Assembly (NCBI RefSeq): GCF_056712565.1
Contig: NZ_CM160072.1
Length of the DNA: 64,000 nucleotides
Strand: one strand, 5' to 3'
Shown: in pieces, positions 7,365-63,085 of the stretch
How the letters are laid out: the number at the start of each line of letters is the position of its first letter
How positions within the stretch are numbered: position 1 is the stretch's first letter
Notes under the pieces: generated by a model
What the model saw: only the letters and a program-made list of their open reading frames with translations
Told to the model about the DNA's origin: nothing
The model's database searches: none
Translations under genes and position numbers: made by a program

Positions 7365-7769
7365 CCACAAGATATTTATGGTGATGCAAAAACAACACAT
7401 TTAATTCGTTGAATATAAAGGGCTTTAATTTTTGGCCCTTTTATTTTTAGTGTTATGCTTTTAAATCTAATGCAAATGCTGAAAATTACATGTTTTGTAT
7501 TCTGTTTTTGTTGTTTTAATGTAAATTTTGACCATTTGGTCCACTTTTTTCTGCTCATTTTGATTTCATGCAATCTTCTTGCTGCGCAAGCGTTTTCCAG
7601 AACATGTTATATGATCTTTTTGTCGCTTAATGCCTGTAAAACATGCATGAGCCACAAAATAATATAAAAAATCCCGCCATTAAGTTGACTTTTAGCTCCC
7701 ATATCTCCAGAATGCCGCCGTTTGCCAGAAATTCGTCGGTAAGCAGATTTGCATTGATTTACGTCATCA

Positions 7770-7815
7770 TTGTGAATTAATATGCAAATAAAGTGAGTGA
7801 ATATTCTCTGGAGGG
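7770..7815 (+). promoter_or_regulatory. carAB P2 promoter region with tandem ArgR (ARG) boxes
   Basis: gtgaattaatatgcaaata and agtgagtgaatattctct resemble the ARG box consensus TNTGAATWWWWATTCANW, immediately upstream of carA; established carAB arginine control. Confidence 0.6.
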
Positions 7816-12287: not shown

Positions 12288-12996
12288 GTGCACAGAAAAC
12301 CCCCAGCTAGGCTGGGGGTTCCGGAAAGCTTTCAGCTTTGAGCCAGTTATTAAAACCCCTTTTGATTTGTTAAAACACCTTGCGGTCTGGCAACTGCAAG
12401 TGTCAAACAAGAAATCAAAAGGGGGTCCCAATGGGGAACGAAAAGAGCTTAGCGCACACCCGATGGAACTGTAAATATCACATAGTATTTGCGCCAAAAT
12501 ACCGAAGACAGGTGTTCTACAGAGAGAAGCGTAGAGCAATAGGCTGTATTTTGAGAAAGCTGTGTGAGTGGAAAAGTGTACGGATTCTGGAAGCTGAATG
12601 CTGTGCAGATCATATCCATATGCTTGTGGAGATCCCGCCCAAAATGAGCGTATCAGGCTTTATGGGATATCTGAAAGGGAAAAGCAGTCTGATGCCTTAC
12701 GAGCAGTTTGGTGATTTGAAATTCAAATACAGGAACAGGGAGTTCTGGTGCAGAGGGTATTACGTCGATACGGTGGGTAAGAACACGGCGAAGATACAGG
12801 ATTACATAAAGCACCAGCTTGAAGAGGATAAAATGGGAGAGCAGTTATCGATTCCCTATCCGGGCAGCCCGTTTACGGGCCGTAAGTAACGAAGTTGGAT
12901 GCAAATGTCAGATCGTGTGCGCCTGTTAGGGCGCGGCTGGTAAGAGAGCCTTATAGGCGCATTTGAAAAACCTCCGGCTATGCCGGAGGATATTTA
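12288..12996 (+). mobile_element. IS200-like insertion sequence (IS200/IS605 family), about 709 bp; boundaries approximate
   Basis: Contains a Y1 transposase gene; perfect subterminal palindrome ccccagc-tag-gctgggg at 12301-12317 (the characteristic IS200 left-end hairpin) and a second palindrome cctccggc-tat-gccggagg at 12971-12989 near the right end; the carB-caiF spacer is about 710 bp longer than in K-12. Confidence 0.8.
12431..12889 (+). CDS. tnpA: IS200 transposase TnpA (HUH / Y1 single-strand transposase)
   Basis: 152 aa from ATG 12431: MGNEKSLAHTRWNCKYHIVFAPKYRRQVFYREKRRAIGCILRKLCEWKSVRILEAECCADHIHMLVEIPPKMSVSGFMGYLKGKSS..., containing the HxH (HIHML) motif and catalytic Tyr region of IS200 TnpA. 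Confidence 0.9.
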   Translation: MGNEKSLAHTRWNCKYHIVFAPKYRRQVFYREKRRAIGCILRKLCEWKSVRILEAECCADHIHMLVEIPPKMSVSGFMGYLKGKSSLMPYEQFGDLKFKYRNREFWCRGYYVDTVGKNTAKIQDYIKHQLEEDKMGEQLSIPYPGSPFTGRK

Positions 12997-26689: not shown

Positions 26690-29215
<2,526 letters not shown>

Positions 29216-29300
29216 TTTTGTATATTAGAATTCCGGCATCACTGATACGTGCAGATATCCGTGTATACCAGACGTATAAATTGTACAGGAGCACGAGATC

Positions 29301-29534
29301 ATGACTGCAAAACGTACCACACAAAGTGTGACCGTCACCGTCGACCGTGAGTTAGTCAATCGCGCTCGTGATGCAGGCTTAAATATGAGCGCCACCCTTA
29401 CGGTTGCGCTCAATGCTGAACTTAAAAAACATGCAGCAACACGTTGGCGTGAAGAGAACGCAGAAGCTATCGCTGCGTTAAATCAATTGGCTGATGAAAC
29501 CGGATGTTTCTCTGATGAGTACCGGAGCTTCTAG
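29301..29534 (+). CDS. ccdA: CcdA-family antitoxin (chromosomal ccdO157-type)
   Basis: 77-aa ORF MTAKRTTQSVTVTVDRELVNRARDAGLNMSATLTVALNAELKKHAATRWREENAEAIAALNQLADETGCFSDEYRSF; ribbon-helix-helix N-terminus and W-x-EEN...GSF-DE-R-F C-terminus align with F-plasmid CcdA; GTATAC-like palindromes upstream. Confidence 0.88.
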   Translation: MTAKRTTQSVTVTVDRELVNRARDAGLNMSATLTVALNAELKKHAATRWREENAEAIAALNQLADETGCFSDEYRSF

Positions 29535-29536
29535 CG

Positions 29537-29852
29537 ATGCAATTTACGGTATACCGCAGTCGCGGCAGGAACGCCGCGTTTCCCTTTGTTATTGATGTTA
29601 CCAGCGACATTGTTGGTGAGATTAATCGCCGTATCGTTATTCCATTAACACCTATTTGAACGATTTAGCCGTATTCGCCCACCAGAACGGCTTAACCCAA
29701 TCCTTTTACCGGTAGACGGCAAAGAATATGTGCTCATGACGCATGAGACTGCAACTGTTCCAGTTAACGCGCTGGGAACGAAATTTTGCGATGCCAGCGC
29801 GCACCGAACGTTGATTAAAGGAGCATTAGATTTTATGCTCGACGGGATTTAA
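29537..29852 (+). pseudogene. ccdB: CcdB-family gyrase toxin gene, inactivated by a +1 frameshift
   Basis: ATG 29537 encodes MQFTVYRSRGRNAAFPFVIDVTSDIVGEINRRIVIPLTPI, then TGA at 29657-29659; the +1 frame from 29658 continues [64 protein letters not shown] to TAA 29850-29852. Both parts align with CcdB; the break is in the T-run of cct att tga. Confidence 0.85.
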
Positions 29853-30697
29853 GACGCTACCGCCTCTCCCTCACTCAAATCCTTATGCCGGTTCGACGGC
29901 TGGACAAAATACTGTTTATCTTCCCAGCGCAGGCAGGTTAATGTACCACCCCAGCAGCAGCCGGTATCCAGCGCGTAAATACCTTCCGGCGTACCTTTGC
30001 CTTCCAGCGATGCCCAGTGACCAAAGGCGATGTTGTACTCTTCAGCGACGGGGCCAGGAATCGCAAACCACGGTTTCAGTGGGGCAGGGGCCTCTTCCGG
30101 CGATTCTTTGCTGTACATATCCAGTTGACCGTTCGGGAAGCAAAAACGCATACGGGTAAAGGCGTTGGTGATAAAACGCAGTCTTCCCAGCCCCCGCAAT
30201 TCCGGCGACCAGTTATTTGGCATATCGCCGTACATGGCATCAAGGAAGAAGGGATAGGAGTCACTCGACAGCACCGCTTCTACATCGCGCGCGCACTCTT
30301 TGGCTGTCTGCAGATCCCACTGCGGCGTGATCCCGGCGTGGGCCATCACTAACTTTTTCTCTTTGTCGATTTGCAGCAAAGGCTGGCGACGCAGCCAGTT
30401 AAGCAGCTCGTCGGCATCCGGCGCTTCCAGCAGCGGTGTCAGGCGATCTTTCGGTTTATTGCGGCTGATCCCGGCAAATACCGCCAGCAGATGCAGATCG
30501 TGATTACCCAGCACCAGACGTACGCTGTCGCCTAAGGATTTCACATAGCGCAGAACATCCAGCGAACCCGGGCCGCGCGCGACCAGATCGCCCGTCAGCC
30601 AGAGGGTATCTTTCCCAGGGGTAAATTCTACTTTATGCAGCAATGCGATCAGTTCATCGTAACAACCATGAACGTCGCCAATAAGGTATGTCGCCAT
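29849..30697 (-). CDS. apaH: bis(5'-nucleosyl)-tetraphosphatase, symmetrical
   Basis: 282-aa ORF with metallophosphatase motifs GDVHGC and GNHD; the C-terminus (..[11 protein letters not shown]) is 2 aa longer than the K-12 form I recall, and its stop codon overlaps the ccdB stop on the opposite strand. Confidence 0.93.
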
Positions 30698-37654: not shown

Positions 37655-37795
37655 TTCAACGTGTAGGCCTGATAAGACGCGGTAGGCCGGATAAGACGCG
37701 CCAGCGTCGCATCCGGCGAGCAGCATCAGACAATCGGCGCAAAATTGCCGGATGCGGCGTGAACGCCTTCTCCGGCCTACCGAACTTCGCCAGCG
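37655..37795. repeat. REP / BIME cluster
   Basis: gtaggcctgataagacgcggtaggccggataagacgcgccagcgtcgcatccggc ... gccggatgcggcgtgaacgccttctccggcctacc. Confidence 0.75.
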
Positions 37796-44667: not shown

Positions 44668-44945
44668 GACTCCTTCGTGCCGGATGCGCTTTGCTTATCC
44701 GGCCTACAAAATCGCAGCGTGTAGGCCTGATAAGACGCGTCGGCGTCGCATCAGGCGGTGAATGCCGGATGCGCTTTGCTTATCCGGCCTACAAATCCGG
44801 AACGCGTAGGCCTGATAAGACGCGCCAGCGCCGCATCAGGCGGTGAATGCCGGATGCGCTTTGCTTATCCGGCCTACAAATCCGGAACGCGTAGGCCTGA
44901 TAAGACGCGTCAGCGTCGCATCAGGCGTTACATACCTGATGCGGC
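44668..44945. repeat. BIME array: three tandem copies of an approximately 96-bp REP-containing unit
   Basis: gccggatgcgctttgcttatccggcctacaaa ... gtaggcctgataagacgcg ... gcatcaggcggtgaat repeated three times between araD and araA. Confidence 0.85.
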
Positions 44946-49392: not shown

Positions 49393-49860
49393 TTTATATA
49401 TTTCACGGGGGATTAATTTTAGTTATTTTTAGTTGAATCGTTTTACCTGAATTATTTTTTTTCTTGATAAAATATCGACAACGATTTCTTTTTGTAAAAA
49501 TAAAACGAAGGCTTATGTATCGGGATACCCATCATGAACATATTGTCCGGTTGCATCAGGAGAATATATCAAGCGGTTTGTTCATCGTAGGAACACCACA
49601 TTGAGCGGTTATGGCAGGCACTTCACGCCACCATAAATGCCGTTCGATGTGGCAGTTGTTGAAAAAAGTACGGCATTCTATGAAAAACGCCAGTTACTCC
49701 CTCAGAGGAGAACATGGTCTGGCAAAAGTGTAGCGGCATCAGGCGCAGCTATCTTTGTAAATTCATTCATAAAATGAATTGTATACAAAAAAATATTGAA
49801 AAATAATATTTTTCCTTATTGATATTATTTGCTATACGTTTTTTTTGAGGGGAGATTGTG

Positions 49861-50709
49861 ATGAGCAAACGTAACGATATTACTGATGGAATATTTGCAA
49901 CAACGAAAAAGTATGGATTAGTTTATACCGAAGAGTTAGGTTGGATCGATTTGGGGCATGCTCAGGGACAAGATGCCAGAATATTAAAAAGAAAATTGGA
50001 GCAAGAACATTTTTCAACATATTACGATGAATTTCATGATTGGTATTTTCCTGTTGATTATCATCAGGAAATGGGAATTCGGAAAAAAATATTAGGAGTA
50101 GATCTTACATTTCATACCGGTGTTTATACGAAGGTTATGGTTCGTTCATGTCTTTCACCCACTCTTAAAGCAAGAGTTGCCTTAACGTTAATGTATGGAA
50201 CTGCGAAGAGGTTTGAAGCATGGCAAAACTCATTTATTTTTAACTGGTATACTGATAGCGGATTTAGTGCAGAAGATTTAGTCTCAGACTTGATTGGTTT
50301 TTATCGTGTATTTGGAACAGGCCCCGATCCACTTTTATTGGCAAAACCTTTATCTTACACAAAAGCCTTACAAATATGGGATACATATGGAGCGCCAGGG
50401 AATTTTAAAAATACTGAGTTTACGCCATTCTTATTTACAACCCATCCTCCTTTTAAAAAAAATCAACTAATAAAAAAGAAGCTTCCAGAATGGTTAAATT
50501 ATATAAAGCCATTAGATGAGTCTTTTTCAATATTGTTATATAATCAATATAATAATAGACCTGTTACTAATTATTATAAAGATAAAAACAGAATAAATCA
50601 TGAGTTGTATAGTTCATTATCAAGTTCGGGAGCTATAAAGTTTTCAGAATCTCCCTTTGAAAGACCGCTTTTTCTTTTCTTAAACCCTCATTATCCGCAC
50701 AGGTCGTGA
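49861..50709 (+). CDS. hypothetical protein, 282 aa, no signal peptide, family unassigned
   Basis: Uninterrupted 283-codon ORF in roughly 30% GC DNA (unlikely by chance); RBS gaggggag 6 nt upstream of ATG 49861 (GTG at 49858 also in frame); product rich in K/N/Y/F: MSKRNDITDGIFATTKKYGLVYTEELGWIDLGHAQGQDARILKRKLEQEHF... Confidence 0.7.
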   Translation: MSKRNDITDGIFATTKKYGLVYTEELGWIDLGHAQGQDARILKRKLEQEHFSTYYDEFHDWYFPVDYHQEMGIRKKILGVDLTFHTGVYTKVMVRSCLSPTLKARVALTLMYGTAKRFEAWQNSFIFNWYTDSGFSAEDLVSDLIGFYRVFGTGPDPLLLAKPLSYTKALQIWDTYGAPGNFKNTEFTPFLFTTHPPFKKNQLIKKKLPEWLNYIKPLDESFSILLYNQYNNRPVTNYYKDKNRINHELYSSLSSSGAIKFSESPFERPLFLFLNPHYPHRS

Positions 50710-50715
50710 GTAGAG

Positions 50716-51138
50716 ATGTCAAAATATATTTATATTTTATTATCATTTTTAGTTTTATTCTTTATATTTTTCTATGCTTATATCTCATTGATGTCAAAGG
50801 AACATCACTATACACAGCATGAACTTTCCCCATTTTTCCTTTATACGCCAGAGAGTTTGCGAAATTTGCCAAACATATCAAACGTAGCCGAGTATAGCTA
50901 TTACTATAATGTTGATGATATGCAAACAAGAGTGATTGTTACATGGCGAAATATAGATAACATTTTTCTTCAGAAAGCAAAGCTAATAGATTTTTTGAAA
51001 AGAATGGGACCGAGTCTACAAAACGATTGTATATGGTTTTTTCATGATAAAAGTGATTATGCAAATAATTTCCAGCGTTATTGCATCATTGAGCACCGTG
51101 ATTCTCTGCAGGTGGAATATTTTGAGACTATCGAATGA
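50716..51138 (+). CDS. hypothetical membrane-anchored protein, 140 aa, family unassigned
   Basis: Starts 6 nt after the upstream ORF stop (operon / translational coupling); N-terminal hydrophobic segment YIYILLSFLVLFFIFFYAYISL followed by an approximately 110-aa soluble domain. Confidence 0.65.
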   Translation: MSKYIYILLSFLVLFFIFFYAYISLMSKEHHYTQHELSPFFLYTPESLRNLPNISNVAEYSYYYNVDDMQTRVIVTWRNIDNIFLQKAKLIDFLKRMGPSLQNDCIWFFHDKSDYANNFQRYCIIEHRDSLQVEYFETIE

Positions 51139-55422: not shown

Positions 55423-55459
55423 TTTGCACCTCACAAAAGAGTGGCAAAGGACTTGAGAA

Positions 55460-55560
55460 GGAGCCTCAAATCCCTTCGCCGGCGTTATCCGGATCAGGTT
55501 CGACGGGTATTTTCTCAGCGCACGCGGCTGCGTGGCACCCCGTTGAGAACGGCGTTAGTG
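55460..55560 (-). ncRNA. TPP riboswitch (thi box) in the thiBPQ leader
   Basis: Minus strand carries the conserved aptamer elements GGGGUGCC, CUGAGA and ACCUGAUCCGGAUAACGCCGGCGAAGGGA directly upstream of thiB. Confidence 0.8.
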
Positions 55561-57308: not shown

Positions 57309-57536
57309 GATGAAGCAAGGAGGTGCCCCATGCGTCAGTTTTATCAGCACTATTTTACCGCGACAGCGAAGTTGTGCTGGTTGCGTTGGTTAAGCGTCCC
57401 ACAACGATTAACCATGCTTGAAGAGCTGATGCAGTGGGAGGGGAGTCATTCTGACTACTGATTTGCGGACATCATGTGTGACTGAGTATTGGTGTTAATC
57501 GCCACGCCAGCAGTGATTATCTGCTGGCTTTTTTCT
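57309..57536 (+). ncRNA. sgrS: small RNA SgrS (glucose-phosphate stress sRNA)
   Basis: 5' end gatgaagcaagg(a)ggtgcccc; embeds the sgrT ORF; conserved 3' base-pairing region agtattggtgt; terminator ccagcagtgattatctgctgg plus U-run. Confidence 0.85.
57330..57461 (+). CDS. sgrT: small protein SgrT (PTS glucose transporter inhibitor), divergent allele
   Basis: 43-aa ORF MRQFYQHYFTATAKLCWLRWLSVPQRLTMLEELMQWEGSHSDY within sgrS; roughly 60% identical to the K-12 SgrT I recall. Confidence 0.75.
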   Translation: MRQFYQHYFTATAKLCWLRWLSVPQRLTMLEELMQWEGSHSDY

Positions 57537-62289: not shown

Positions 62290-62325
62290 GCATAAAAAAA
62301 CCCGCGCAATGGCGCGGGTTTTTGT
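62290..62325 (-). terminator. leu operon attenuator terminator
   Basis: Minus strand aaacccgcgccattgcgcgggttttttatg: GC hairpin plus U-run between leuL and leuA. Confidence 0.8.
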
Positions 62326-62341
62326 TTGACTGCGTGCTGGC

Positions 62342-62428
62342 TTAATGCTGGATGCCGCTCACTCGTCTACCGCGCAAAAAAGATGCGTTTAGTAGTAGTA
62401 GACCGATAAAGCGAACGATGTGAGTCAT
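62342..62428 (-). CDS. leuL: leu operon leader peptide
   Basis: 28-aa [31 protein letters not shown] with four consecutive Leu codons, the classical attenuation control. Confidence 0.9.
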
Positions 62429-63085
62429 TAAATCAGCTCCAGATGAATGCGATATGCTTTTAGAGTTACTGGATACAAAAACGGATGTCAACCCTGAAGC
62501 AATAAAAACGTCACGCCATTGTGAGTTCGGCATCCGTAAAATTAGCTAATTGTGCTGCGGTGGTTAAAACAAGCGATATTAATTTCTGCTTAACCGCCGA
62601 TGCTTTTCATCGGTTGACATATTTCAGAATAATTTTTTGCATCTAATCAACGAGGGAAAGGGGGATAAAATGCACGCGTTACAAAACCTATCCTGATGAT
62701 TTGTATTGAATTATATGTTTTGCGAATTTTTTGATATTCATTTGCTGAATATTATTGATCAATTAATGTTAAGAATTAATGCATTAAACATATAAATTAA
62801 TTATTAAAAAACACATTTAATCCATTTTGTGGATGATTGAGTATTCGTGGTAGTTATGATTAGATTGTTTTCGCAACAAAAACATTATGGATTATTATGC
62901 TGTAGTAAATGACTCTTTGCTCGGCAGTGGATTCTGTTTTTATCAGAACCTGTATCTTTATGTTTTCCTAATTTTACTCATTTTGCTTTTTCTTATTTTA
63001 TATGCATGATAAATCATATTCTCGAGGATTATTTCTCTGCATTCCAATAAGGGAAAGGGAGTTAAGTGTGACAGTGGAGTTAAGT

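Follow-up and report, generated by a model that had tools for sequence, protein, structure and literature searches.

Between folA and apaH, in the 64-kb window that makes up the whole stretch of DNA analysed here, resides a chromosomal ccdAB cassette of the ccdO157 type, in which the antitoxin gene is complete and the toxin gene is divided between two reading frames (Table 1). The two genes display the antitoxin-then-toxin order of a bicistronic unit, with just 2 bases between the ccdA stop codon and the ccdB start codon, and the folA-ccdA spacer measures 85 bp in the sequence. At the opposite end of the cassette, a single TTAA (29849-29852) provides the stop of both ccdB and the convergent apaH. 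An earlier note on this DNA had assigned the locus to chromosomal ccdO157-type ccdAB between folA and apaH, and this assignment agrees with the identity of the flanking genes, with comparison to the empty site and with near-identity to the cassette of Escherichia coli O157:H7. The intact ccdA of 77 residues described in the same note is likewise present as 77 codons plus TAG, and its product matches Pfam family PF07362 (model positions 2-71 of 71, E = 1.5e-26) as well as the structure of F-plasmid CcdA (PDB 2adl, E = 9e-6). This CcdA protein, WP_000125566.1, is identical in O157:H7 and ATCC 25922.

Table 1. Features of the folA-apaH region, in coordinates of the 64-kb window
Feature	Position	Strand	Basis or remark
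folA (dihydrofolate reductase)	28736-29215	+	left core-genome flank; ORF list, RefSeq annotation of identical locus NZ_CP033092.2
folA stop TAA	29213-29215	+	sequence
Putative promoter/operator region with GTATAC-like hexamers	29220-29286	+	motif count; putative function
GTATAT	29220-29225	+	GTATAC-like hexamer
ccd islet, ~616 bp	29232-29847	+	pairwise alignment with ccd-less K-12-type site
GTATAC	29263-29268	+	perfect copy
GTATAA	29274-29279	+	GTATAC-like hexamer
TATAAA, candidate -10	29275-29280	+	sequence
TGTACA palindrome	29281-29286	+	follows GTATAA
Shine-Dalgarno AGGAG of ccdA	29287-29291	+	9 nt 5′ of ATG; read from sequence
ccdA, intact	29301-29534	+	77 codons + TAG (29532-29534); CcdA-family antitoxin
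GGAG ribosome-binding site of ccdB	29524-29527	+	sequence
ccdB, whole gene (frameshifted)	29537-29852	+	two frames, translations
ccdB pseudogene, 5′ part	29537-29659	+	40 codons, then premature TGA (29657-29659)
ccdB substitution A>G, I26V	29612	+	separates this ccdB haplotype from common B2 allele
TTT run with one-base insertion	29655-29657	+	TT in intact alleles; alignments
ccdB pseudogene, 3′ part	29658-29852	+	+1 frame, 64 codons (29658-29849), TAA (29850-29852)
ccdB substitution T>C, L58P (repaired numbering)	29710	+	second missense change of haplotype
apaH	29849-30697	-	convergent right flank; ORF list, annotation, sequence

The limits of the islet emerge from alignment with the empty site, where homology stops after TAGAAT (29231) and restarts at TTTAAGACGC (29848), the islet standing in place of the 77-bp K-12-type REP spacer between folA and apaH. 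A cassette occupies this site in approximately 2021 of 5426 complete genomes; the genomes without one carry a short REP-containing spacer instead. The folA/apaH site of ccdO157, its nature as a genomic islet and its degeneration within the species have been described previously (PMC2654758; PMC3184786; PMC7167474; PMC7232551), as has its location there relative to a REP spacer (PMC3184786; PMC7232551). The apaH product is 282 amino acids long here versus 280 at the ccd-less K-12-type site, owing to a 6-bp indel at 29870-29875. A scan of the locus found no terminator-like site between ccdB and apaH, and transcription of ccd would therefore read antisense into apaH. Three terminator-like matches fall inside ccdB and have the appearance of chance matches, and an Rfam scan of the cassette and its neighbourhood returned no RNA family.

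Upstream of ccdA is a short region bearing several hexamers that resemble GTATAC. Three such hexamers (at most one mismatch) occur in the 83 bp 5′ of ccdA, a modest enrichment over the mean of 0.22 for stretches of that size, and stretches that reach three make up 0.08% of all and 0.8% of those of similar GC content. The region also contains the direct repeat TGTATATTAGA / TGTATACCAGA, and a fourth copy, a perfect GTATAC, lies within ccdB as part of a 10-bp palindrome, CGGTATACCG (29547-29556). Over the window as a whole, exact GTATAC shows no enrichment (8 occurrences versus 6.7 expected). Of the GTATAC palindromes at the centre of the F-plasmid operator, one is perfect and two are imperfect (PMC5389731). 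The earlier note had likened the upstream palindromes to CcdA operator repeats, and the motif count agrees with that comparison; it is reasonable to treat these hexamers as candidate operator sites. A sigma-70 consensus scan 5′ of ccdA called no promoter.

Several other elements can be recognized elsewhere in the window. An IS200C transposase gene (12431-12889, + strand) is inserted between caiF and carB, with an Rfam STnc490 match (12298-12421) ahead of it. In the araA-araD spacer (44678-44927), an 85-bp unit made up of REP-like palindromes forms a tandem repeat (2.9 copies, 93% matches). Between araC and yabI, the segment 49594-51138 looks like a small accessory insertion, in which two ORFs labelled hypothetical protein (49858-50709 and 50716-51138, both +) adjoin an IS630 transposase remnant. 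Further Rfam matches are found at their expected places, namely the ES003 sRNA (7720-7772), the REP-derived naRNA4 (37685-37777), a TPP riboswitch 5′ of thiB (55453-55552), SgrS (57309-57535) and the leu leader (62294-62442).

A split ccdB reading frame

The zero frame of ccdB, read from its ATG, gives the 40-codon product MQFTVYRSRGRNAAFPFVIDVTSDIVGEINRRIVIPLTPI, and the continuation in the +1 frame, ERFSRIRPPERL...DFMLDGI, extends for 64 codons. This is the arrangement that the earlier note had reported (40 codons, TGA at 29657 and 64 further codons in the +1 frame), and it is found in both the sequence and the translations. Against the NCBIfam CcdB model the 5′ part aligns with positions 1-37, and the 3′ part corresponds to the C-terminal two thirds of the protein, including the terminal helix. 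When joined, the two frames encode 104 amino acids that span the entire Pfam CcdB model (PF01845, positions 1-101 of 101, E = 1.4e-31) and find among PDB entries the CcdB proteins of Vibrio fischeri (E = 1e-16) and the F plasmid (E = 3.5e-10). The note had left to be checked whether the split frames belong to a single CcdB; given this full-length match, they represent one divided gene rather than a chance pair of ORFs.

The complete domain appears only once a single T is removed; as written, the ORF ends after 40 codons. Alignment with intact alleles shows the lesion to be one added T, such that CCTATTGAA has become CCTATTTGAA in the T-run at 29655-29657. The note's proposal of an extra T as the simplest cause is thereby upheld, with TT in the intact alleles versus TTT here. 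In the alignment, which included five other alleles, this T is the sole length difference from intact alleles. The closest intact allele found, that of isolate CFE299, has 3 differences over 721 bp, all of them in ccdB: A>G at 29612, the added T, and T>C at 29710. Once repaired, the CcdB of the window is identical to the intact CcdB-family protein WP_001160969.1 of strain 1105. The ccdB gene here is a CcdB-family pseudogene, and RefSeq/PGAP labels it "CcdB family protein, frameshifted".

The 3′ frame stays open for 64 codons, and C-terminal peptides derived from CcdB can inhibit gyrase (PMC10886550). Conceivably, then, both pieces could be made and reassemble, or the C-terminal piece alone could act on gyrase. 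The first possible start codon in the +1 frame, though, is a GTG at 29730 that has no Shine-Dalgarno-like sequence 5′ to it, and the absence of a ribosome-binding site makes a separate C-terminal piece unlikely. Moreover, translation from this GTG would lack coupling to upstream translation and would yield just 40 residues. A toxin working from two pieces, or from the C-terminal one alone, therefore deserves almost no credence, and loss of the toxin through the inserted T is the reading retained below.

Inheritance of the inserted T

The T insertion is real and marks a lineage that has inherited it. Among 5426 complete E. coli genomes, 133 contain an exact match to the 61-mer that has the frameshift at its centre, including UTI89, S88, APEC O1, IHE3034 and ATCC 11775, and the T is absent in 1491 others. 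Over the longer segment 29180-29900, at least 60 complete genomes show 100% identity, including UTI89, S88, APEC O1, IHE3034, NU14, IMT5155 and the type strain, ATCC 11775. Similarity to the type strain extends across the whole 64-kb window, which runs from ribF to leuO and differs from the reverse complement of NZ_CP033092.2, positions 3922982-3986981, by 11 mismatches and a single 2-base gap (99.98% identity). IMT5155 belongs to ST complex 95 and APEC O1:K1 is an ST95 strain, as given in the title of PMC4232414. The window is that of an ST95-type phylogroup B2 E. coli. UTI89, S88, IHE3034 and the other named carriers belong to ST complex 95 as well. UTI89 was scored as having no chromosomal CcdB homologue in a 2009 review (PMC2654758, Table 2), which is the outcome that a broken ORF would give in a protein-level search.

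Single-base indels are a frequent artefact of assembly, and ccdB could in principle be intact in the organism, the additional T being an error of sequencing, a possibility that the earlier note had raised. The run is just three bases long, however, and the allele follows one background, being found with V26 and in 0 genomes with I26. The exact 61-mer is common to 133 independent complete assemblies produced over about 20 years with various technologies; sequencing error is rejected on this ground, its chance of being correct being negligible, and the read-level check that the note had proposed becomes superfluous.

The history of the inherited insertion relative to the two missense changes was approached through allele-specific sequence queries of complete E. 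coli genomes. V26 without the frameshift was found in 11 genomes, and the frameshift was never found on I26; I26V is therefore older than the frameshift. P58 without the frameshift was found in 6 genomes, the frameshift with L58 in 3 (A3, A26 and H22) and the frameshift with P58 in approximately 130. All four combinations of T insertion or no insertion with L58 or P58 thus exist, so that the four-gamete test fails and the haplotypes do not order the insertion relative to L58P. Their coexistence requires a recurrent T insertion, a recurrent T>C change, a reversion or a recombination breakpoint within 55 bp, and a simple history with one origin accounts for them only if recurrent mutation or recombination is admitted. 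The 12-kb flanks on each side reveal no sister lineage, the pattern being star-like: each of the genomes compared lies at a distance of 151-195 SNPs per 23.8 kb from the window.

The four combinations would follow if the T were gained or lost repeatedly, which is one reason to consider that the site might serve as a leaky or reversible switch, or alternatively as a recoding site at which ribosomes shift to +1 on AUU-UGA-A, so that a minority of cells would produce full-length CcdB(V26,P58). In addition, the start codon of ccdB and the GGAG that serves as its ribosome-binding site are still in place, and the frameshift site bears a superficial likeness to the programmed +1 site of prfB, which encodes RF2 and has the sequence CUU-UGA-C: in both, a codon ending in U is followed directly by a zero-frame UGA, with continuation in the +1 frame. 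The likeness goes little further. An upstream Shine-Dalgarno stimulator is present in prfB, whereas the 20 nt upstream of the ccdB site (CGTATCGTTATTCCATTAACACCT) contain no Shine-Dalgarno-like element, and tRNA-Ile slipping by +1 would re-pair poorly, meeting UUU with a first-position mismatch. Nor is the ccdB site conserved: AUU-UGA is missing from the 1491 other alleles and represents a derived insertion in one clone. Programmed frameshifting of the prfB type is accordingly judged unlikely. As for a mutational switch, phase variation by ordinary slippage would need a run far longer than three T residues, the ccdB lesions of other lineages lie at unrelated sites, and the haplotypes are accounted for just as well by recombination or by a repeated T>C change at 29710. 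If such a mechanism did operate, rare cells of the lineage would make full-length CcdB(V26,P58) and the gene would not be fully dead. We consider either version very improbable and favour a simple inherited loss of ccdB function.

Decay of the toxin and persistence of the antitoxin

The preferred reading, to which we assign a probability of roughly 0.93, is that the cassette is a ccdO157-type toxin-antitoxin islet in which ccdB has been killed by an inherited single-T insertion, one of several independent decay lesions. The islet would have entered the folA-apaH interval at the expense of the REP spacer. For the O157 allele, the literature describes a toxin that poisons gyrase and a Lon-labile antitoxin that neutralizes it (PMC10886550; PMC7354431). 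When the system is intact, the ribbon-helix-helix antitoxin CcdA, a substrate of Lon, would bind and neutralize CcdB, which poisons gyrase at its GyrA subunit, and the CcdA-CcdB complex would repress the operon at GTATAC-like operator sites. After insertion of the T behind codon 40 of ccdB, translation would stop at the TGA at 29657.

As it stands, the sequence allows ccdB a single product, a fragment made of the N-terminal 40 residues. Some 60% of the fold would be missing from this fragment, the C-terminal helix required for gyrase poisoning among it, and for that reason the toxin is expected to be dead, and the cassette no longer addictive; in F CcdB, the C-terminal helix has the residues for gyrase poisoning, W99 being the one cited (PMC7232551). 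Judged by the parts that it lacks, the fragment is probably inactive. On the F plasmid, CcdA alone binds the operator weakly, and CcdB is required to link its dimers into the chain that represses (PMC5389731). Extrapolating from this arrangement, the ccd promoter here would be poorly repressed once the CcdB co-repressor is lost.

Comparable lesions exist in other lineages. A 13-bp deletion in ccdB, equivalent to 29719-29731 of the window, is present in HCM-28C-2 and 200164, and GF130 has a 7-bp duplication, TTATTCC, after the equivalent of 29636. Both alleles are annotated as frameshifted pseudogenes and both have an intact ccdA. Across 9 sampled alleles, ccdB shows 12 substituted sites and 3 indels, and ccdA shows 2 substituted sites. 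The unrelated positions of the ccdB breaks favour plain decay. These independent lesions bear out the earlier note's view that the locus fits ccdO157 decay, as do the accounts of Mine et al. (2009) given in PMC2654758, PMC3184786, PMC3879964 and PMC7280312. As summarized in PMC3879964, both components are active in 61% of systems, the toxin is inactive in 21% and both are inactive in 2%; PMC7280312 gives about 30% defective toxins. The allele is already annotated in RefSeq and belongs to the published decay of ccdO157, and is in that sense already known.

The lineage with the 13-bp deletion differs upstream as well, the perfect GTATAC having changed to GTTTAC (window position 29265), and its CcdA carries T47I. 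These changes hint that drift of operator and antitoxin is beginning there too.

The antitoxin gene of the window has retained its ribosome-binding site, start codon and protein sequence, and is on that account probably still expressed. Whether such an orphan CcdA is kept by selection, for anti-addiction against incoming ccd toxins or for regulation of other genes, can be weighed from several sides. The CcdA protein is the same in all but one sampled haplotype while ccdB varies, and the chromosomal ccd of Erwinia chrysanthemi has a documented anti-addiction role (PMC7167474; PMC10305079). The reviews are in conflict regarding CcdA-O157 and the F toxin. According to one, O157 CcdA gives protection from F CcdB (PMC10886550). 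Two others, PMC3920263 and PMC7354431 (see also PMC10305079), cite Wilbaux (2007) for the opposite, namely that the chromosomal antitoxin fails to neutralize F CcdB, whereas CcdA-F neutralizes CcdB-O157.

The earlier note had proposed that the retained CcdA might protect the cell from addiction to plasmid ccd. It is, however, the very protein of O157:H7 that, according to PMC3920263 and PMC7354431, is unable to neutralize F CcdB, and the proposal is not supported, on balance, for the F plasmid; other ccd variants could conceivably still be targets. A regulatory role is countered by the weak, non-specific DNA binding of F-type CcdA alone (PMC5389731). Furthermore, alleles with both components inactive are among those of Mine et al. 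(2009) as PMC3879964 summarizes them, and the frameshift carriers, which share an identical cassette, may on our assumption be too closely related for conservation of ccdA to signify selection. Maintenance of the orphan CcdA by selection is improbable, and its persistence most likely reflects too little time for decay rather than function.

Under the decay reading, ST95-type extraintestinal pathogenic E. coli such as UTI89, S88, APEC O1 and the type strain have an orphan CcdA and a dead CcdB, and scores of "ccdAB present" obtained by PCR or ccdA homology in urinary and avian isolates need this caveat. Decay of a toxin-antitoxin system begins here with loss of the toxin, and the allele is a clean natural case of that initial step. 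A natural control for testing orphan antitoxins comes with it, as the same antitoxin can be compared with and without the toxin, for instance in strain 1105 versus ST95. Its significance beyond such bookkeeping is small.

Comparison with known toxin-antitoxin systems

The ccdAB operon of the F plasmid provides the more distant comparison. The two systems share the same two Pfam families, an antitoxin-then-toxin operon and upstream hexamers of the GTATAC type (PMC5389731). F-plasmid CcdB, in contrast, has only about 35% identity with chromosomal CcdB (PMC7232551), and the residue equivalent to its Trp99 is Asp here. The system here is chromosomal, and its toxin is broken. Against the NCBIfam equivalogs for F-type CcdA and CcdB (NF010264 and NF010262), the proteins of the window score 38.6 bits versus a cut-off of 100 and 60.3 bits versus 147, respectively; by these scores they are members of the families but not F-type equivalogs. 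As the scores fall below the equivalog cut-offs, regulatory details of the F plasmid may not transfer to this locus.

The closer relative is ccdO157 of E. coli O157:H7, which shares with the cassette of the window the folA/apaH site, the gene order and the CcdA protein (WP_000125566.1). Compared with O157:H7, whose ccdB the earlier note had proposed to align as a check, the cassette shows 98.2% DNA identity over 718 bp (strain M1300706002). The O157:H7 CcdB and the repaired CcdB differ at 4 residues (G10S, I26V, E28V and L58P), and the O157:H7 ccdB allele is intact, whereas the allele here has the +1 frameshift after codon 40 together with I26V and L58P. It is with the decayed alleles of ccdO157 that the present cassette is most directly comparable: in those of Mine et al. 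(2009), as related in PMC3879964 and PMC7280312, an inactive toxin accompanies an intact antitoxin, which is the same combination as here and, in these same sources, the most common decay state reported, accounting for 21-30% of systems.
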